This document shows positions 8,669-21,239 of a stretch of DNA of 64,000 nucleotides, piece by piece. The stretch is taken from positions 9,254 through 73,253 of the forward strand of contig JAZSKI010000049.1 of assembly GCA_045534775.1 (NCBI GenBank), given 5' to 3'. This DNA comes from Clostridia bacterium. GTDB lineage: Bacteria > Bacillota > Clostridia > RUG12999. Each line of letters opens with the position of its first letter. Position 1 is the stretch's first letter. The position numbers and the translations under genes are program-made. The notes beneath the pieces were generated by a model. The model was not told where the DNA came from and made no database searches. It saw only the letters and a list, made by a program, of their open reading frames with translations.

Positions 8669-9454
8669 TTGAAAAGGCATATTAAAAACGACCTGGTTTA
8701 TTATACAGATGAAGCGCTTGACCAATCAGGAAATATTACCCACGTTTTCACAACCCGCCTCGGCGGTGTCAGTAAAGGTAGTCTTTCTTCCCTTAATATG
8801 GGCGTTAACCGCCCTGACACACGTGAGAATATTCTGGAAAATTACCGCCGCGTTTGCGATACCGTAGGCTTGGATTATACCCGCTGTGTTTTAGCACAGC
8901 AAGCTCACACGTCAAATATCCGCATTGTAACAGAAGCCGATGCAGGTAAAGGACTGATTGTTCCTTCTGATATTAAAGATACTGATGGTCTTGTCACCAA
9001 CATAAAAAATCTCCCGCTGGTGATTTTTTATGCCGATTGCGTTCCTGTTTTACTTTATGACGAGACGTCTCACGTAATTGCGACTGTTCATTCGGGTTGG
9101 CGGGGAACCGTCTCTAAAATTGCCGAAAATGCAATTAATATAATGAACTCCCGGTTCGGTTGCCGTCCTGAAAATATTACCGCCGTTATAGGTCCTTCCC
9201 TATGCAGGGAGCATTTTGAAACCGGTCTTGATGTAGCGGAGAAATTTTCCTCTTATCCCCGGTGCATAGTCTATAAAAATGACAAAGCATATATAGATTT
9301 GTGGCAGGTTAACCGACAAATTCTGCAAAACTGCGGTGTCAGCAATATAAATATTTCAGGTCTTTGCACCGTCTGCGATACTTATGAGTTTTTCTCCCAT
9401 CGCGGGTGCGGTCCGGATACCGGCAGAATGGCTCTGATTGCTTGTTTGAAATAG
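8669..9454 (+). CDS. pgeF: peptidoglycan editing factor PgeF / YfiH (DUF152) family protein
   Basis: 261 aa with the conserved HSGWRGT motif. TTG start. Confidence 0.8.
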   Translation: MKRHIKNDLVYYTDEALDQSGNITHVFTTRLGGVSKGSLSSLNMGVNRPDTRENILENYRRVCDTVGLDYTRCVLAQQAHTSNIRIVTEADAGKGLIVPSDIKDTDGLVTNIKNLPLVIFYADCVPVLLYDETSHVIATVHSGWRGTVSKIAENAINIMNSRFGCRPENITAVIGPSLCREHFETGLDVAEKFSSYPRCIVYKNDKAYIDLWQVNRQILQNCGVSNINISGLCTVCDTYEFFSHRGCGPDTGRMALIACLK

Positions 9455-9463
9455 GAGGCGGAA

Positions 9464-10402
9464 ATGTTTTACAACCCTTATTCTGAATATTTAATGAAAA
9501 CTTATGGTGAAAAGGTATATAAGCTTCCTGTAAATCTTAAAACCACCTGTCCCAACCGTGACGGCACATCAGGCTATGGCGGTTGCATTTACTGCGGTGA
9601 AAAGGGTGCAGGCTTTGAAAATCTTTCAAACGACCTTTCGGTCACCGAACAGCTTCGCCGCAACGCCGAATATATCGGCAAAAAATATAATGCAAAGAAA
9701 TTTATCGCTTATTTCCAGAATTTCACCAACACCTATATGCCTGCAGATGAATTTGAAGGCTATGTAAAAGAGGCGACAAGCTGTAATATTATCGGTATTG
9801 ACGTTTCCACAAGACCCGATTGCATTTCAACTCAATATCTTGAAATTTTAAAAGAAACAGGACTTGACATTACCATTGAGCTTGGGCTTCAGACGGTGAA
9901 TTATCATACTCTGAAAAAAATTAACCGCGGTCACGGACTGGCTGAATTTATCGAAGCGGTGCTTCTCATAAAAAGCTACGGATTTAAAGTATGCACCCAC
10001 ATCATATTGGATTTGCCCTATGACAATATAACCGATGTTACAGAGGCCGCACGAATTTTATCGGCTCTTAAAATTGACTTTGTAAAGCTCCATTCCCTTT
10101 ACGTTGTCTATGATACTGTTTTAGACAACCTCTATACCAAAGGCGAAATTTCTCTTTTGTCGTACGAGGACTATATTGACCGATGTGTAGCCTTTTTGCG
10201 GAATTTAGATGAAAATATTGTAGTTCAACGACTAATCGGACGAGCTCCCAAAGAGGATTGCCGAATAGCGAATTTCAATATGAGCTGGTGGAGAATCAAG
10301 GATTTAACAGAAGAACGCTTCAAAACGGAAAATGCCCGTCAGGGCGATTTATGCGGCAGTCTTTGCGGCAGTGCCGTAAAAAAATTTGTAAAGAAGGATT
10401 AG
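9464..10402 (+). CDS. TIGR01212-family radical SAM protein (YhcC-like)
   Basis: 312 aa. The CPNRDG...GGCIYCG cysteine motif is characteristic of TIGR01212. Confidence 0.8.
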   Translation: MFYNPYSEYLMKTYGEKVYKLPVNLKTTCPNRDGTSGYGGCIYCGEKGAGFENLSNDLSVTEQLRRNAEYIGKKYNAKKFIAYFQNFTNTYMPADEFEGYVKEATSCNIIGIDVSTRPDCISTQYLEILKETGLDITIELGLQTVNYHTLKKINRGHGLAEFIEAVLLIKSYGFKVCTHIILDLPYDNITDVTEAARILSALKIDFVKLHSLYVVYDTVLDNLYTKGEISLLSYEDYIDRCVAFLRNLDENIVVQRLIGRAPKEDCRIANFNMSWWRIKDLTEERFKTENARQGDLCGSLCGSAVKKFVKKD

Positions 10403-14505: not shown

Positions 14506-17382
14506 CTATTTTTTCAAAATAATTTTTACGGTTCCAGAGAGGAGGGCTAAAACCACCTTGTCATCTGCATTTATTTCCGAAATATCCGTCTTTTTCAGCC
14601 TGCCGTTTTCTATTTCATAAACCACCGCCGAGGTGGTTGAGAAGTTCCTTTCGCCACCGGTTGACTCCGCTATAATGCGACCGTCATATTTTTTCAGTAC
14701 CTTACCCAAAAATACTGCTGTTTCTCCGAAGAAGAAATCCGCCGTTACAGTACCCCATTCGCCCGTTACCCATTCATAGAAATCTGTAGTATCGGCTGAA
14801 TGTAAAAACCGCACTGCATTTATTTCTCCTTTTTCGTCCGTACCGTATTGCAGAATATCGCCGACCGCAAGTGGGGTCCCCCCATCGCCCGGGTGCAGGA
14901 TTTTGTTTTTACAGGAACCTATTGCCGTTATATCTTCAATATCCCTTGCGGAAATTTTAATATCCGTTCCATTACTGAAGGTAAGCATATAAACCTCGTT
15001 TCCCGTTTCATCGAGGGTCACTTCTATTTCCCGGATTATGACAATTTCATTATAATTGGTAATATTCAGCATCTGGCTGTCCTTTTCGTGGACTATGACC
15101 GCCTCAGGTACATATTGTTCGTCTGTGCCGTAGATTTCTATATTATATCTGTTTGTAGCTTTGAAAAAATCTTTTTTCCTTACAAAGTAGCCTTCCTCGT
15201 AGGTTTTATCTTCGGGAATTACTATAATCTTTGTTTCGTCCGACAGGAAATATCTTGCGGCAAAAAGACTGTTGTGATAGAGACTGATGCTCTTATAATC
15301 CGCATTTTCCACGCTGAGGCTGCTTATTTTTCCGTCTCTCGCCAGGCTGTATTTTACGGTTTTCCCTTCAGGCGGCAGGGCAACGCCCTGCTTTAAAGTA
15401 AATATTTCTATTTTACCGCCGCCCGTAAAGAGTTTTATTTCCATATCATCCGAAATATTACCCGAGCTTCCCGTTTTTATCACATAGCCATAGTTTTCAT
15501 AGGGCGAGCTTTTAATATCGGCATAGAGGATTTTCCCCTGTCTGTCAAAATAAAAATATCCCCATTCACCCACCTGCGGTTGCGGTGTGTTTCCGAAGGC
15601 GGCTGAAACCGCGTAGGGTTTCCCGTCAATAATTAACTCCCTTTCACTTAAAGAGTCTAAGGTCCCGATGACCGCTTCCGTTGAAATTATAATTTCTGTC
15701 GCCCTGCCGTTTATGCTTCTTGCAATTTGCAGTACCTCGTCGGCATTATAGCTCAAATCATCTGTTTTTTCGCCGTCACGGATTACGGTTACCTGCCTGC
15801 AATCGGGCAAATTAAGCATAAGCTTTCCGCTGAATCTGCCGTAAACTTCTTTTTCGAGGCTTCCTCCGCTTTGGGCAACTACCGCAGTATAGCTTTTGAT
15901 TTTAACCGTTTCTGCAGGTGAACCGATAATCTCAGCCTCCCCGTCAGCAGGGCAATAATCGGCTAAATTGCAATCCCCTGCCGAGGCTAAAAACTCGCCG
16001 TTATATATAATTCTGGTATTGGGTGTGATGCTGACCCTTACGCCGCCACCTGCGATTTCGCTGTTATTAAACTCTTCAATATCATCTGCCGAAATCACCT
16101 TTACATCCTCTGTTTTATCAGTAAAATGTATAACCTTCCCCTCGTCATCCGCATAAAGCTTCACCCTATGACCCAACAGCTTTTTAATTCCTTCATCCCC
16201 GCAGCTATAGGTTTCAAAACCCAGTCGAATCTGAGTTTTCCTCACCGAGCTGTCACCCGTCAGGGCGGTTGTGCCGTTATCCGTCAAGAGAGACGTTACC
16301 GTATTAATTTTATGATAATATTTAAGAGCATTTACAGTTTTATCGTATACGATATTCTCTCCGAAGGAGCTTTGCTCCATAACCCTCGTTTCAAAAGCGT
16401 TTGCTAGAAGATTTACCATATCTCCTCTCGTTATATCGCCGTCTTTGACATTTTTCCCCAGCTTCAGCTCCCCGGCAATGGACAAATATCCTACGGGATA
16501 GCCGCCCGTGGTCTCGGCATAGTTACCATAGCCCAGTGCCGTTACAAGTATTTTTACGGCTTCCTTATAGCTGACAATCCTGTCCGGATAGAAAAGCCCG
16601 TCTGACGCTCCGGTGACAAGTCCATTTTCCACCCCTGCGTTTACATAAGGCGTATACCACGCTTCCTTAGCCACATCCTCAAAATAGGTGTAGCCACCGC
16701 CGTTTTCCGCATTAATCAGCTTTGCAACCGCAGTAATGTAGCCGGCACGGGTAACAGTCTCTTCAGGTCTGTAGCTACCGTCATCATAGCCGTTTAAGAT
16801 ACCGAGACTGTTTAAAAGCTTTAAGCTATCCAGCATATTTTCATCTGTTACATCAGCAAATTTTTCACTACCGCCCTTTTCGCCTCTGATAAAGCGAATA
16901 GCAGGGTTCCAGGAGTTTCCGCCCAAATTCTGAAATTCTATTTTTATGAATTTATCTTCGGTGTTTTTTATTTTATAGTCTATTGTCAGCCATTTATTTT
17001 CTATCTTGGGATGGATTTTAATGGACGGTTTAATTTGTCTGAACTTCTCCCCGTCCTCCGACAAATAGAAATTAAAATGAGACATTCCGTCACCGTCCCA
17101 GAAATAGGTTGAAACGGTAAGGTCGCATTGAATCGGGATTTCATATACAAGCCACTGTGGTGAAAGCTCCGTTCGCTGAATAAAACTGAAATCATCGGTG
17201 AAGCTTACCTCCTCATCCGTATGAGGGGTTGCCGTAAGCTTTTCACTATGAAAAACCGCACCGTCAAGGCTTGCGCAATCCTCAAAAAAAGGCAACGATA
17301 CCTCTTCTGCCGATACAGCGATCGGCAGAAGAAGTACTGACAGAATTATTAAAATATGTTTTTTTATATTACACTTTAACAT
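14506..17382 (-). CDS. large secreted cell-surface protein with N-terminal SLH (S-layer homology) domains
   Basis: Signal peptide MLKCNIKKHILIILSVLLLPIAVSA. Several SLH repeats are present (FADV...LGIL.GY.DG.YRP...TRAE...). The start is placed at the second Met (17382), which has a GGAG RBS. The ORF track starts at 17397, which would overlap the ilvD relic. Confidence 0.75.
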   Translation of the reverse strand: MLKCNIKKHILIILSVLLLPIAVSAEEVSLPFFEDCASLDGAVFHSEKLTATPHTDEEVSFTDDFSFIQRTELSPQWLVYEIPIQCDLTVSTYFWDGDGMSHFNFYLSEDGEKFRQIKPSIKIHPKIENKWLTIDYKIKNTEDKFIKIEFQNLGGNSWNPAIRFIRGEKGGSEKFADVTDENMLDSLKLLNSLGILNGYDDGSYRPEETVTRAGYITAVAKLINAENGGGYTYFEDVAKEAWYTPYVNAGVENGLVTGASDGLFYPDRIVSYKEAVKILVTALGYGNYAETTGGYPVGYLSIAGELKLGKNVKDGDITRGDMVNLLANAFETRVMEQSSFGENIVYDKTVNALKYYHKINTVTSLLTDNGTTALTGDSSVRKTQIRLGFETYSCGDEGIKKLLGHRVKLYADDEGKVIHFTDKTEDVKVISADDIEEFNNSEIAGGGVRVSITPNTRIIYNGEFLASAGDCNLADYCPADGEAEIIGSPAETVKIKSYTAVVAQSGGSLEKEVYGRFSGKLMLNLPDCRQVTVIRDGEKTDDLSYNADEVLQIARSINGRATEIIISTEAVIGTLDSLSERELIIDGKPYAVSAAFGNTPQPQVGEWGYFYFDRQGKILYADIKSSPYENYGYVIKTGSSGNISDDMEIKLFTGGGKIEIFTLKQGVALPPEGKTVKYSLARDGKISSLSVENADYKSISLYHNSLFAARYFLSDETKIIVIPEDKTYEEGYFVRKKDFFKATNRYNIEIYGTDEQYVPEAVIVHEKDSQMLNITNYNEIVIIREIEVTLDETGNEVYMLTFSNGTDIKISARDIEDITAIGSCKNKILHPGDGGTPLAVGDILQYGTDEKGEINAVRFLHSADTTDFYEWVTGEWGTVTADFFFGETAVFLGKVLKKYDGRIIAESTGGERNFSTTSAVVYEIENGRLKKTDISEINADDKVVLALLSGTVKIILKK

Positions 17383-17835
17383 CAAGCACAGCTCCATTTA
17401 TAGCAGAAGATACAAGCATTGCATAGCGGCTGAGATACCCTTCTTTGATTTTCATTTCGGGACAGTTCCATTCTTTCATTCGACTTGCGGTTTCCTCGTA
17501 GCGAATTATCGCCACATCAGCTTTTTCGATTTTACCGTCCATAATAGCAGCTATTGCCTCGTCCTCGCTGCCAAAACCTTTGCCTCTTATTCGTGTACCG
17601 GCATTTCCTCAGCAACAGCGGCACGTTTTGCCACACAGCCGTCCTTTGCGGCACGGGGTATTTTATACGTACGGATATGCCCGGGGATAATCTCATTAAA
17701 GGTACTCGCAACACCTGTAACAGGTCTTTTTATCTGTTCGCCCGTATATCCCATAGCATTAAGAAGGCTACGGTGAGAAGCTTTTTTTAAGCCCGTACCT
17801 CTCTTAAAATCAAACCTTTCAAAAGTTATATAATT
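17369..17835 (-). pseudogene. ilvD: dihydroxy-acid dehydratase (ilvD) relic: N-terminal ~65 codons fused to two C-terminal pieces, no start codon, internal stop/frameshift
   Basis: Minus-strand translation gives ...LKKASHRSLLNAMGYTGEQIKRPVTGVASTFNEIIPGHIRT... (IlvD residues ~10-75), then a stop, then in another frame GKGFGSEDEAIAAIMDGKIEKADVAIIRYE|ETASRMKEWNCPEMKIKEGYLSRYAMLVSSAINGAVLDV (IlvD ~395-420 joined to ~515-558). About 1.2 kb of ilvD is missing. Confidence 0.6.
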
Positions 17836-17893: not shown

Positions 17894-18205
17894 TTAATTT
17901 CTTTCGTTACACACCTCTATGTAGAAGCTCACCGGTCTGAATCCGTCATTACAGGAAATCATAGCCGATTTTTCATTTTTCATCCAACCGTCGTAGAAGT
18001 TACCGCCGCCGGTTGCCAGCTCTTTTACAAAATATTCCATACTCTCCCAGGCAGAATCGCACATATTTTCAGGCTTTTCGCCGCGGACGGACATAAACTC
18101 CATACCGAGCCGCATTTCGCAGGCATGCTCGATTGGATTTTCATATTTTTCTATCAAATCCTCATACCGCATCATTTTCATAACGGTAATTTTTACGTCC
18201 TTCAT
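17894..18205 (-). CDS. hypothetical protein (103 aa, 4 Cys), last gene of PAS-Sir2-rhodanese operon
   Basis: 4-nt ATGA overlap with the upstream rhodanese gene. No family recognised. Confidence 0.5.
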   Translation of the reverse strand: MKDVKITVMKMMRYEDLIEKYENPIEHACEMRLGMEFMSVRGEKPENMCDSAWESMEYFVKELATGGGNFYDGWMKNEKSAMISCNDGFRPVSFYIEVCNERN

Positions 18206-18618
18206 TTCTCCACCTCATACTGCCAGTCAATGATACCGCCGAATTCTTTTACCTTGGTGTAGCCGAGCTTTACAAGGCTTTCCGATGCGATTTTACTTCT
18301 TCTGCCGCTACGGCAATATACAAGTATCTGCTTGTTTTTGTCCGAAATCACCCTTTCGGCTTCCGCCTCAATTTCGGTGTATGGAATTAAGATTGCTCCC
18401 GGAATATGTCCCTCGCAAAACTCGCTCTTTTCCCTTACATCAAGGATAATTATATCCTCGCCGCTATCCATTATCCTTTTTGCCTCTTCTGTTGAAATCT
18501 GTTCGTACATTACTATTCCTCCCTGCTTTGATACATTCTCACCGCCGTTATTATCCCCGCAAGCGGTGAGAAAAATACAAAACACAGCAGATATAATACA
18601 TAATATTTTCTTCATCAT
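18202..18618 (-). CDS. rhodanese-domain lipoprotein (sulfurtransferase-like)
   Basis: Signal peptide with lipobox LTAC. Single rhodanese domain with the active-site loop YCRSGRRS. Confidence 0.8.
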   Translation of the reverse strand: MMKKILCIISAVFCIFLTACGDNNGGENVSKQGGIVMYEQISTEEAKRIMDSGEDIIILDVREKSEFCEGHIPGAILIPYTEIEAEAERVISDKNKQILVYCRSGRRSKIASESLVKLGYTKVKEFGGIIDWQYEVEK

Positions 18619-19352
18619 AGTTTTTCCATCACCTTTTTGAATACCTCGCCGATATTTTCTCTTATTACCAAATCGGCGTGACCGTCGTATTCTGTTTCGG
18701 ATTTATTTATCATAACAATATATTTCCCTCTGAAATATCTTACAAAGGATGCGGCAGGGTACACCGCAAGGGATGTCCCTCCTACCACGAGCATATCCGC
18801 GTTTTCTATATGATACACCGCCGATTCCGCAATCCCCTCATAGAGTGCTTCGCCGTACAGTACAACCTGAGGCTTCATAATTCCGCCGCAGGAAACGCAT
18901 CTTGGTACATTTTTGTTTTTGATTTCCGACAAAAGCATATCTGTCGCTCCTTGTCTGCCGCAGGAAACGCAGGTAAATTTTTCTGCCGTTCCGTGAAGCT
19001 CAATTACATTTTTGCTACCCTCCCGTTGATGCAGTCCGTCTATGTTTTGGGTTATGACCGCCTTCAGCTTCCCCATTTTTTCAAGCTTTGCCAATGCTTT
19101 GTGGGCATCGTTGGGTTCTGCCTCGATTATAAAATATTTTCTGTAAAAATCATAAAAGGTTTCGGGATTTCGGAAAAAGAAATCGTGGCTTAAGATTTCT
19201 TCGGGTGGTATACCGTATTCTTTAACTGTATTATATAATCCGTCCCGACTCCTGTAATCCTTCACGCCGCTTTCGGTAGACACTCCCGCCCCTCCGAAGA
19301 AAGCTATTCTGTCACATTCTCTGACCATCTCTGTAAATTTTTCTATATTCAT
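18615..19352 (-). CDS. cobB: NAD-dependent protein deacylase, Sir2 family (CobB-like)
   Basis: 245 aa with GAGVSTESGVKDYRS, the Zn ribbon CVSCG...CVSCGG and a Rossmann fold. 4-nt overlap with the rhodanese gene. Confidence 0.85.
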   Translation of the reverse strand: MNIEKFTEMVRECDRIAFFGGAGVSTESGVKDYRSRDGLYNTVKEYGIPPEEILSHDFFFRNPETFYDFYRKYFIIEAEPNDAHKALAKLEKMGKLKAVITQNIDGLHQREGSKNVIELHGTAEKFTCVSCGRQGATDMLLSEIKNKNVPRCVSCGGIMKPQVVLYGEALYEGIAESAVYHIENADMLVVGGTSLAVYPAASFVRYFRGKYIVMINKSETEYDGHADLVIRENIGEVFKKVMEKL

Positions 19353-19365
19353 TTTACTTGCCTCG

Positions 19366-19731
19366 TCAAACCTTTTTAGGCTGATACAGCCCGACCGGCT
19401 CTCTGTTTCTGTACTCGTGTTTCTCGTAGTAGCCTATCAGAGTTCCGTCATCATCACGAAGTGCTACCATATAGACATCCTTGTTTTCTTCATCATTACG
19501 ATAGGTATAGATAATATTGTTACTCTTTCCTTCCTTAAACCACGCAAGGACCTTATCTATCATCTCGTTTGCCTTCTGCGTATGGCAGTCTCTTATGCTG
19601 CTGCCCGTCAAATTCTTGCGGTACCTCGCTATAGCCGACGGATTCATATATACAATTTTGTCATTCATATCGCAAATAACAACAGGTGCCGTATCCGCTT
19701 CAAGTACACTTTTTAATAATTTGTTTAACAT
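19366..19731 (-). CDS. small stand-alone PAS-domain protein
   Basis: PAS-fold pattern (VVICDMNDKIVYMNPSA...DGTLIGY). The start is placed at the second Met (19731), which has the RBS AGGAGGG 5 nt upstream. The track start is 19746. Confidence 0.55.
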   Translation of the reverse strand: MLNKLLKSVLEADTAPVVICDMNDKIVYMNPSAIARYRKNLTGSSIRDCHTQKANEMIDKVLAWFKEGKSNNIIYTYRNDEENKDVYMVALRDDDGTLIGYYEKHEYRNREPVGLYQPKKV

Positions 19732-19795
19732 CTTGTCCCTCCTCATTTTTTATTGTTTTGAATAAAAGCCTCTTGTTTAATTTTATCCGATGCTT

Positions 19796-20470
19796 TTATT
19801 TCAGACTTTTCAGATATTCCTTTTGCCTGTCCGTAATCCGATGGCTTTCCGCCGCCTTTTGGATTGTCTTGTTATGTACCCATTGGGGCAGGCTCTTGTT
19901 TTCTATATACCTAACAGCCGTATCATACTGTTTTACAAGTGCTGCCTGAAAATACCACGCCATCATCATATTGACATAGTATTCCTCCGACCTGATGTTT
20001 GCAACCATATCGGTGTATTCCTTCCTGAAGCTACAGTCCAGAAAATGCGTCATAAGCATACCTATTGCAAAACGTACTGTATACGGTTTATCCGATTTGA
20101 GCCATTCTTTAATTTTAATCAACAGCTGAGGCAGATTGTTCTTAAATGCCGCAGGTCTGAAACCGTCGCAGGTTGCCCAGTTATCTATCCACGGTAAAAA
20201 CCTTTCCGTCTCCGCCATACAGCTGTCATAATTCTTTATCTGCATTATCAAAAATGCGTGAAGGTTATTTTCTTCGTAGTATTTATGAGGCAGGCTGTCT
20301 AAAAATTCCCCGTATTCTTCCCTTTTAAAAAGCTCCTTAGCAAGTCGTTTAAGCTCAGGCACTCTCACTCCTATTACCCATTCTTTATCAACAGTCGGCA
20401 TAAGCCCGGAGTGAAAATCGCGGTATTTTAAGTCCTGCAAGCTAAATAATTCTTTTTGTATGCTTTTCAT
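19796..20470 (-). CDS. DNA alkylation repair enzyme (AlkD/AlkC HEAT-like repeat family)
   Basis: 224 aa. Family signature residues are present (WVIGVRVPELKRLAKEL...WATCD). Confidence 0.8.
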   Translation of the reverse strand: MKSIQKELFSLQDLKYRDFHSGLMPTVDKEWVIGVRVPELKRLAKELFKREEYGEFLDSLPHKYYEENNLHAFLIMQIKNYDSCMAETERFLPWIDNWATCDGFRPAAFKNNLPQLLIKIKEWLKSDKPYTVRFAIGMLMTHFLDCSFRKEYTDMVANIRSEEYYVNMMMAWYFQAALVKQYDTAVRYIENKSLPQWVHNKTIQKAAESHRITDRQKEYLKSLK

Positions 20471-20496: not shown

Positions 20497-21239
20497 TTAA
20501 TTTTCAATCAAAAAGTCCGATTTTGCGGTTTGCCTGAATTTTATGGGCGATACGCCTTTTATTTTTTTGAAAATACGGCTGAAATAGGCAGCGGCAGAAT
20601 AACCCAGCATTTCCGAAATTTCTTCTATGCTGTAATCGGTGTTTGCCAGCAAATTTTCGGCTTTTTCTGTTTTTCTGAAATTTATATACTCACTGACTGT
20701 ACAGTGATAATAGCTGTGAAACAACCTGTACAGAGAGCTTTTTGAAATATATGTCGCTTGCGCAACCTTCGTTGCCGAAAGAGGTTTAAAAATATTTTCA
20801 TTTATATACATGGTTGCTTTTTCGATATTTTTATCCGACTTCGGTTTCATGATATTTTCAAGTAATATGTATTTTGCCAGCATAACGCCAACTGTGGTTA
20901 TACTTCGGATTTTCGCATCTTCAACCATCTCAAGGCTGTCATAGTATTCCTGTAGCTTCGGGTTTGTGCAAAAGCCTTTTCCAGTTTTTATCTGACCCAT
21001 AATAACATATCCTATAATTATGCCTTCATGGATGATTGGCACAGCAATGTCCGTAAGCCCTGCGTGGCAGATATGGCGTTCAGGCTTTTTGCTTTCCCCG
21101 CATCGCCGCAAAAGCTTTATATCAGAGCTACTGCAGGCACGCCTTCCCTCCGGCGTTTCCTGAATTTTTCTGCAATAGTCATTGGAAACGATGCTTTTTT
21201 TATATTTGAGTATATTAAATCATTATAATCAACTATCAT
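20497..21239 (-). CDS. AraC-family regulator with N-terminal PocR sensory domain; apparent -1 frameshift in a T7 run
   Basis: C-terminal AraC HTH. The PocR motifs DYCRKIQETPEGRRACSSSD and HICHAGL are present. The frame opens without an ATG. The true start MIVDYNDLIYSNIKK is at 21239 in another frame. The two frames join if the T7 run at 21195-21201 is T8. The gene lies 26 nt upstream of alkD. Confidence 0.6.

Follow-up and report, generated by a model that had tools for sequence, protein, structure and literature searches.

We analysed a 64,000-nucleotide stretch of a Clostridia bacterium genome (GenBank assembly GCA_045534775.1, contig JAZSKI010000049.1; hereafter the window), whose minus strand carries four closely packed genes encoding a stand-alone PAS protein, a Sir2-type deacylase (sirtuin), a rhodanese lipoprotein and a protein of the TIGR04076 family. 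We consider it likely that they descend, in a compacted form particular to one lineage, from a long, plastic array of small co-directional accessory genes found in uncultured gut Clostridia. The set PAS-Sir2-rhodanese-TIGR04076 is probably an accident of gene loss and not a new pathway. An earlier note on this DNA had described the genes as a translationally coupled operon and an undescribed module. The four-gene set indeed matches no described module; nevertheless it is not conserved, and each of its genes belongs to a known family.

We examined the surroundings of Sir2 in related genomes. A scan of species-representative genomes with the sirtuin yielded 80 loci whose Sir2 is 52-85% identical to that of the window. 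All of them belong to metagenome-assembled genomes (MAGs) obtained from the guts of animals and humans and assigned to uncultured Clostridia; the clade that carries the array has MAGs under the labels Acutalibacteraceae, 'Ruminococcus' or Clostridia. The window proteins together with 23 recurrent neighbour families were mapped onto the loci. They fall into two groups, 34 species with a Sir2 at least 74% identical and 46 species with a Sir2 52-72% identical. None of the 34 closer species displays the order PAS-Sir2-rhodanese-TIGR04076. PAS is never directly upstream of Sir2 in this group (0/32); it lies elsewhere upstream in 16 of the 32 loci, with one to eight genes between. TIGR04076 directly follows rhodanese in 5/18 loci, the place being taken otherwise by a DUF5714, an ArsC/glutaredoxin-family or a small membrane zinc-ribbon gene. 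These counts contradict the view of the four genes as a conserved unit. The commonest upstream neighbour of Sir2 is YjbR, which directly precedes it in 14/32 loci, and other upstream neighbours are EamA, the MGMT-like DNA-binding protein and a CDP-alcohol phosphatidyltransferase. The genes at the outer flanks of the window's cluster, DNA_alkylation and SLH, stand beside Sir2 in no relative of this Sir2-centred sample. Looked up by exact sequence, the Sir2 and TIGR04076 proteins of the window matched no recorded contig.

What recurs is Sir2 followed by rhodanese. Rhodanese is directly downstream of Sir2 in 20 of the 30 close-group loci that have downstream sequence, and in one further locus a His-rich open reading frame (ORF) separates the two. 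The neighbourhood is thus conserved in relatives for this pair, which persists with changed flanks, and for this pair only. Among the 46 more distant species rhodanese was never found next to Sir2, by BLAST clusters and by hidden Markov model (HMM) search alike; the HMM search for remote rhodanese, PAS, YjbR and TIGR04076 near the distant Sir2 genes returned nothing beyond the BLAST clusters. Within the sample, the Sir2-rhodanese pair is limited to one narrow clade.

Reciprocal samples show that orthologues of rhodanese, TIGR04076 and PAS mostly occur without Sir2, which argues against Sir2 being tied to these partners. When 80 metagenome loci were centred on TIGR04076 (62-84% identical to the window protein), Sir2 lay within 6 kb in 1/80 and rhodanese in 2/80, and the four-gene order occurred in none. 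Its commonest recognisable neighbour there is an ArsC-family gene; in many of the loci the surroundings are entirely different. Centring on rhodanese gave four distinct contexts: Sir2 is upstream in one of them, after an MBL-fold gene and LHH/SUKH cassettes, and a CN_hydrolase, MGMT-like or HTH gene is upstream in the others. Likewise, Sir2 was absent from all four contexts of the PAS-centred sample. Loci L178-L180 carry the order PAS-MGMT-like-rhodanese-TIGR04076 between housekeeping genes; here an MGMT-like gene occupies the place of Sir2, indicating that the Sir2 slot is interchangeable.

Some 20 small genes, the four among them, make up a pool from which co-directional arrays with spacers of -11 to about +30 nt are built. 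The pool includes PAS, DUF5714, an LMWPc/ArsC-type phosphatase, TIGR04076, nitroreductase, Fe-ADH, the MGMT-like DNA-binding protein, YjbR, Sir2, the rhodanese lipoprotein, an ArsC/glutaredoxin-family protein, flavin reductase, nucleotidyltransferase, EamA, YeiH, MATE and others. These genes come and go in many combinations, and the spacers are always tiny or overlapping. In its long form (L019, L021, L085) the array reads RibD_C/MATE-PAS-DUF5714-LMWPc-TIGR04076-nitroreductase-FeADH-MGMT-like-YjbR-Sir2-rhodanese-ArsC-family-flavin reductase. Some sub-blocks last: YjbR-Sir2-rhodanese, DUF5714-LMWPc-TIGR04076, nitroreductase-FeADH, c12-glycosyltransferase (c12 being the small membrane zinc-ribbon gene) and ArsC-family-flavin reductase. 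Several of them join functionally unrelated genes, and the persistence of a pair is therefore weak evidence for a shared pathway.

The junctions between the genes are consistent with this origin. Whatever gene precedes Sir2, upstream homology stops about 20 nt short of the Sir2 ATG. The left half of the PAS-Sir2 spacer of the window matches the PAS-nucleotidyltransferase spacer of L010 and L024 (TTTGACGAGG) and its right half the usual Sir2 leader of L005 and L013 (GAGGCAAG.AAATG); the spacer thus resembles a chimera (19350-19380) of the two, joined at the Shine-Dalgarno (SD) sequence CGAGG. The junction looks like an SD-to-SD deletion of the intervening genes. At the other end of the pair, we compared the 3' ends of rhodanese in L001, L005, L006, L008, L010, L011, L014-L016 and L024. 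Whole genes are swapped there exactly at the start codon, and the rhodanese terminus ...GAGGT(G/A)GA(G/A)AAATGA (GAGGTGGAGAAATGA) provides both SD and ATG to TIGR04076, to DUF5714 or to c12. Since the same overlap serves three unrelated downstream genes, ATGA coupling is generic to the rhodanese end and does not mark a special partnership. The earlier note had pointed to the implied co-translation of a cytoplasmic deacylase with an exported sulfurtransferase; an ATGA overlap between the genes of a cytoplasmic enzyme and a lipoprotein is, however, ordinary operon architecture. As the origin of the rhodanese-TIGR04076 join, a microhomology deletion between the GAGGTAG motifs in the rhodanese and LMWPc 3' ends was also considered, and was dropped because it would fuse the reading frames, unlike the join observed.

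Uber-operon-like or 'junkyard' arrays are likewise co-directional, tightly packed and variable in content, with only short sub-blocks lasting. The array of the window's clade differs from them in its unusually clean joins, which are SD-to-SD or ATG-sharing and leave no visible relics between genes. Recombination sites of the integron type are too large for these spacers.

We propose that the order seen in the window would have arisen from a long array through whole-gene deletions. The four genes would be co-transcribed, possibly with the two genes upstream of them, and translation would be coupled at the two ATGA overlaps, while each product would act independently. The sirtuin would deacylate proteins in the cytoplasm. 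The rhodanese, lipid-anchored at the outer face of the membrane, would handle sulfane sulfur or persulfides through Cys102. The TIGR04076 protein may be a cytoplasmic His/Cys3 protein, probably binding a metal or cofactor, and the PAS_10 protein may serve as a small sensor with a Cys-His dyad. If the products are linked at all, the link would lie in shared expression under some thiol, redox or electrophile stress, and not in a common biochemical pathway. Across the array, a loose theme of thiol/redox/electrophile/alkylation stress or detoxification is plausible in view of its content: the ArsC family, LMWPc, CoA-disulfide-reductase-rhodanese proteins, nitroreductases, flavin reductase, the MGMT-like protein and DNA_alkylation. 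Redox or sulfur-stress signalling, as suggested earlier, survives as such a plausible theme drawn from the neighbours, with no demonstrated pathway behind it. A tidy, translationally coupled operon can thus be the residue of gene loss from a fluid accessory array, and because such a residue can look like an operon, adjacency in a single genome should not be read as a pathway. The array of gut Clostridia, with its clean gain and loss joins, may be useful as a natural model for the assembly and pruning of operons.

Several observations weigh against gene loss as the whole explanation. Roughly two in three close species keep the Sir2-rhodanese order amid changed surroundings, and the order is found in a different flank as well, after the MBL-fold gene and LHH/SUKH cassettes of L168-171; a pair retained amid changing flanks and present in a second context is more than simple decay of synteny predicts. 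TIGR04076 abuts Sir2 in four more distant species (L042, L051, L053 and L058). Absences at contig ends are uncertain, given that the relatives are represented by MAG contigs and that many of these are short; furthermore, the promoter and terminator scans are uninformative on co-transcription. Sir2 might then form, with the rhodanese lipoprotein and perhaps also TIGR04076 and PAS, a genuine functional unit specific to this clade, for example one dealing with thiol or sulfane-sulfur stress, in which cytoplasmic deacylation is co-ordinated with extracytoplasmic persulfide or thiosulfate handling. The survival of the pair despite full turnover of its flanks, its second genomic context, the TIGR04076-Sir2 adjacency and the richness of the array in thiol/redox genes (the ArsC family, LMWPc, CoA-disulfide-reductase-rhodanese fusions, nitroreductase, flavin reductase and the Cys-rich DUF5714) all fit such a unit. 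We nevertheless regard it as fairly unlikely. The pair is missing from all 46 species with a Sir2 below 73% identity, and CN_hydrolase, MGMT-like, HTH, PAS or ArsC-family genes precede rhodanese orthologues in place of Sir2. The MGMT-like gene substitutes for Sir2 in PAS-X-rhodanese-TIGR04076, Sir2 is near TIGR04076 in one of the 80 loci of the TIGR04076 sample, and the sirtuin and the rhodanese belong to different compartments. Moreover, sub-blocks of unrelated genes, such as nitroreductase-FeADH and c12-glycosyltransferase, last equally well. A further pair of readings, namely that the locus reflects either a Sir2-rhodanese stress unit of this clade, with TIGR04076 and PAS_10 loosely attached, or cassette-like shuffling mediated by SD sequences, appears distinctly unlikely to us. 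The stress unit, if true, would tie cytoplasmic protein deacylation to extracytoplasmic sulfane-sulfur chemistry. The shuffling, if true, would amount to an integron-site-free swapping of whole genes by recombination between near-identical SD leaders, in which gene 3' ends encoding SD and ATG serve as universal adaptors for any next gene.

Two further explanations concern expression and defence. The genes could be adjacent without consequence for their expression, each served by its own internal promoter, and promoter-like hexamers are indeed present within the cluster, for example at 19258-19230 and 18745-18717. Such matches are, however, no commoner than in shuffled sequence (15 versus 10.4 +/- 3.4, no excess), and terminator counts likewise do not differ. 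Gaps of 13, -4 and -4 nt leave no space for independent promoter or terminator elements, the sole terminator-like site among the four genes is inside the Sir2 coding sequence, and related arrays are packed just as tightly throughout; separate promoters are therefore very unlikely. The sirtuin could also be an NAD-depleting or ADP-ribosylating anti-phage effector of the Thoeris, DSR, SIR2-HerA or SirTM-like kind, with its neighbours as sensor or partners, or, in a variant, with the rhodanese as a rhodanese-phosphatase that processes ADP-ribose products. Sir2 domains are frequent among defence effectors, and upstream of the pair in one relative are toxin/immunity cassettes together with an Apyc1-like MBL gene. 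Our literature search on gene neighbourhoods joining sirtuin and rhodanese found only work on rhodanese-phosphatase domains, a superfamily linked there to ADP-ribose-processing systems (PMC9503650), which does not fit an exported protein with the six-residue sulfurtransferase loop. PADLOC matched none of the four proteins. The sirtuin scores above the NCBIfam equivalog cut-off for deacylases and aligns with Sir2Tm from end to end, Zn ribbon included, and no TIR, SLOG, Macro, HerA, GcvH-L or LplA domain was found among the neighbours in the window and the 34 relatives. The rhodanese is predicted to be exported, and its loop is of the six-residue sulfurtransferase type, not CX5R. The PADLOC null, the deacylase equivalog score and the absence of partner domains largely refute the defence or ADP-ribose reading, which we hold to be extremely unlikely, in agreement with the earlier judgement that a Thoeris/DSR-type role is improbable.

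The four ORFs and the associated features are listed in Table 1. The coordinates and the spacing given previously are confirmed, and an ATGA stop/start overlap is present at both -4 nt joins. Reading the genes as a four-gene operon stands in part: the genes are real, packed and overlapping, but they are not clearly set apart as a transcription unit of their own, as two more co-directional genes lie closely upstream and the scans gave the same counts as shuffled sequence. Between DNA_alkylation and PAS a consensus scan detected nothing promoter-like, and directly 3' of TIGR04076 nothing terminator-like. The DNA_alkylation gene may be in the same transcription unit as PAS.

Table 1. Genes, joins and motifs of the cluster and its flanks (window coordinates).
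Feature	Position	Strand	Basis or remark
AraC-family regulator, 5'-truncated PocR sensory domain	20497..21111	-	co-directional; 26 nt upstream of DNA_alkylation
DNA_alkylation repair-family gene	19796..20470	-	co-directional; 49 nt upstream of PAS
Stand-alone PAS_10/PAS_9 protein, 121 aa	19366..19731	-	alternative upstream ATG at 19746; DCH Cys-His dyad
PAS-Sir2 spacer, 13 nt	19353..19365	-	interpreted as the join left by a deletion from one ribosome-binding site to another
CobB/Sir2Tm-type NAD-dependent protein deacylase (predicted), 245 aa	18615..19352	-	Pfam SIR2, NF001752, 1yc5 alignment
Sir2/rhodanese ATGA overlap	18615..18618	-	window-specific; ~10-nt spacer in relatives
Single-domain rhodanese lipoprotein (predicted), 138 aa	18202..18618	-	Pfam Rhodanese 69 bits; PDB 6mxv, PspE 2jtq
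Rhodanese signal peptide and lipobox MMKKILCIISAVFCIFLTAC	18559..18618	-	pattern match; in 20/20 aligned homologues
Rhodanese active-site loop C102-R-S-G-R-R	18298..18315	-	six-residue sulfurtransferase type; read from sequence
Rhodanese/TIGR04076 ATGA overlap	18202..18205	-	SD and ATG both supplied by the end of the rhodanese gene, GAGGTGGAGAAATGA
TIGR04076 family protein, 103 aa	17894..18205	-	invariant H27, C29, C49, C85
ilvD remnant	17369..17811	-	N- and C-terminal fragments, middle gone, stops; weak Pfam matches

On sequence criteria, the sirtuin is a canonical CobB-type predicted deacylase. It scores 196.5 bits with Pfam SIR2 (cut-off 24) and 304 bits with the NCBIfam equivalog for NAD-dependent protein deacylase, NF001752 (cut-off 221). 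Its alignment with Thermotoga maritima Sir2 (1yc5) is end to end (E=3.5e-49) and pairs GGAGVSTESG with GAGISTPSG, IELHGT with IELHGN, and CVSC...CVSC with CVRC...CDDC. The GAG.ST NAD motif, the catalytic HG and both CxxC pairs, contributing four Zn-ribbon Cys, are retained. These results, together with the PADLOC null, bear out the earlier description of a canonical sirtuin with a Zn ribbon and no defence partner. Its full-length alignment, NAD motif, catalytic His and four Zn-ribbon Cys place the protein with the CobB/Sir2Tm class. Its context differs from theirs, being a shuffled accessory-gene array in which it mostly stands after YjbR and before the rhodanese lipoprotein. In L085, whose long-form array is the closest, Sir2 (9002-9726) matches as two overlapping pieces of 64% and 82% identity, which hints at a frameshift or at misassembly of the contig.

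The rhodanese matches the solved structures 6mxv and PspE (2jtq, E=1.3e-12). Its N-terminus has the layout of a lipoprotein signal: a basic n-region containing K3 and K4, a hydrophobic core, and the lipobox LTAC with Cys20. Residues 10-20, SAVFCIFLTAC, fit a PROSITE-PS51257-like pattern, and the signal peptide with an L[TS][AG]C lipobox is kept in all 20 aligned homologues. The pattern match and its conservation support the lipoprotein signal assigned before. The catalytic loop is CRSGRRS in 19 of these 20 homologues and CRTGRRS in the remaining one. Phosphatases of the rhodanese/Cdc25 superfamily carry a CX5R loop, and sulfurtransferases a six-residue loop. The window protein resembles E. coli phage-shock protein E (PspE) in being extracytoplasmic, with a single domain and one catalytic Cys in a six-residue loop. 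It differs from PspE in its predicted lipid anchoring by a lipobox, PspE being a soluble periplasmic protein, and in the absence of a psp operon and the Gram-positive-type host. Furthermore, it falls short of the PspE equivalog cut-offs, with 58.1 bits for NF007627 (cut-off 102) and 57.5 bits for TIGR02981 (cut-off 126.3). A literature search on extracytoplasmic rhodanese lipoproteins in Firmicutes found nothing useful.

The region following the lipobox varies among homologues. In the comparison across L005-L042 most have a conserved linker SIGIIGGADGPTSI, which gives a weak Pfam OAD_beta match, and the window protein (18520-18558) is without most of it. Just past the signal peptide and linker, at 18508-18524 on the minus strand, a strong internal SD sequence, AGGGAGG, precedes Met37 by 7 nt; initiation there, if used, would yield a cytoplasmic rhodanese isoform of 102 aa. 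Large rhodanese-containing proteins of ~558-565 aa are encoded at the 5' side of the arrays in L013, L017, L024, L064 and L166, often after a MATE or RibD_C gene. The one in L166 has a CoA-disulfide-reductase-like architecture, Pyr_redox_2 plus Rhodanese, and such proteins strengthen the thiol/sulfur flavour of the arrays.

The PAS protein scores just above the Pfam gathering cut-offs for both PAS_9 (29.8 bits, cut-off 27) and PAS_10 (29.4 bits, cut-off 22.1). The start at 19731, given earlier, is preferred over 19746, given the GGAGG 5-6 nt before it and the MLNKLLKSV with which homologues start. A Cys-His dyad (DCH) is invariant in 10 sequences. The nearest solved structure is the PAS_10 domain of PF0695 (3cax, E=1.3e-5). 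The dyad is present in this structure and in 2qkp, two functionally uncharacterised proteins that point to no particular ligand such as haem or flavin. A CH(P)(P)K motif and the region of the PAS fold are common to the window protein and the PAS_10 domains of DUF438/hemerythrin proteins (PF0695, 3cax; SMU_1151c-type, 2qkp); what sets it apart is that no DUF438, hemerythrin or output domain is attached to its PAS domain.

The 103-aa product of the last gene, previously listed as an unknown, belongs to TIGR04076, a large, named and uncharacterised family, with 84.5 bits against a family cut-off of 33. H27, C29, C49 and C85 are invariant in 43 sequences, which also share the invariant core GGGNF.DGWMKN...SCNDGFRPVSF. 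Conservation is unusually strong for an uncharacterised protein of about 100 aa. A sequence search of the PDB with it returned only noise (E >= 0.59), and the literature search brought up incidental mentions of TIGR04076 only. The family is a very large and strongly conserved His/Cys3 family; a confident model and a weak XdhC-like lead are now available for it. Among L086-L164, identity to the window's TIGR04076 is still 62-72% in loci whose neighbours differ entirely. A 197-aa protein is encoded upstream of TIGR04076 in 15-16 loci, with a 254-aa PAS/LuxR-type regulator convergent downstream.

The flanks of the cluster agree with the earlier statement that the locus has been remodelled, for which the ilvD relic (weakly supported), the truncated AraC/PocR gene and the deletion-like PAS-Sir2 junction all speak. 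The N-terminal ilvD fragment (GLKKASHRSLLNAMGYTGEQIKRPV...IPGH) matches with E=0.0089 and the C-terminal one (DGKIEKADVAIIRYE...) with E=0.0021, both below Pfam cut-offs. Their order is the one expected of ilvD, stop codons interrupt them, and ~1.4 kb of the gene is missing. In the AraC-family regulator, the PocR match covers profile positions 68-138 of 162 and a stop codon lies just upstream of the TTG start; the gene appears to be 5'-truncated. No compositional island was seen, the base composition being 0.425 for the four genes and 0.416 for the window. In L168-L171 (1-5000), the MBL-fold gene that precedes Sir2-rhodanese has a Pfam Anti-Pycsar_Apyc1/Lactamase_B_2 match, and a run of LHH toxin and SUKH/SMI1 immunity cassettes lies upstream of it. 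Promoter-like hexamers are present in the window just upstream of the ilvD remnant, at 17879-17836.

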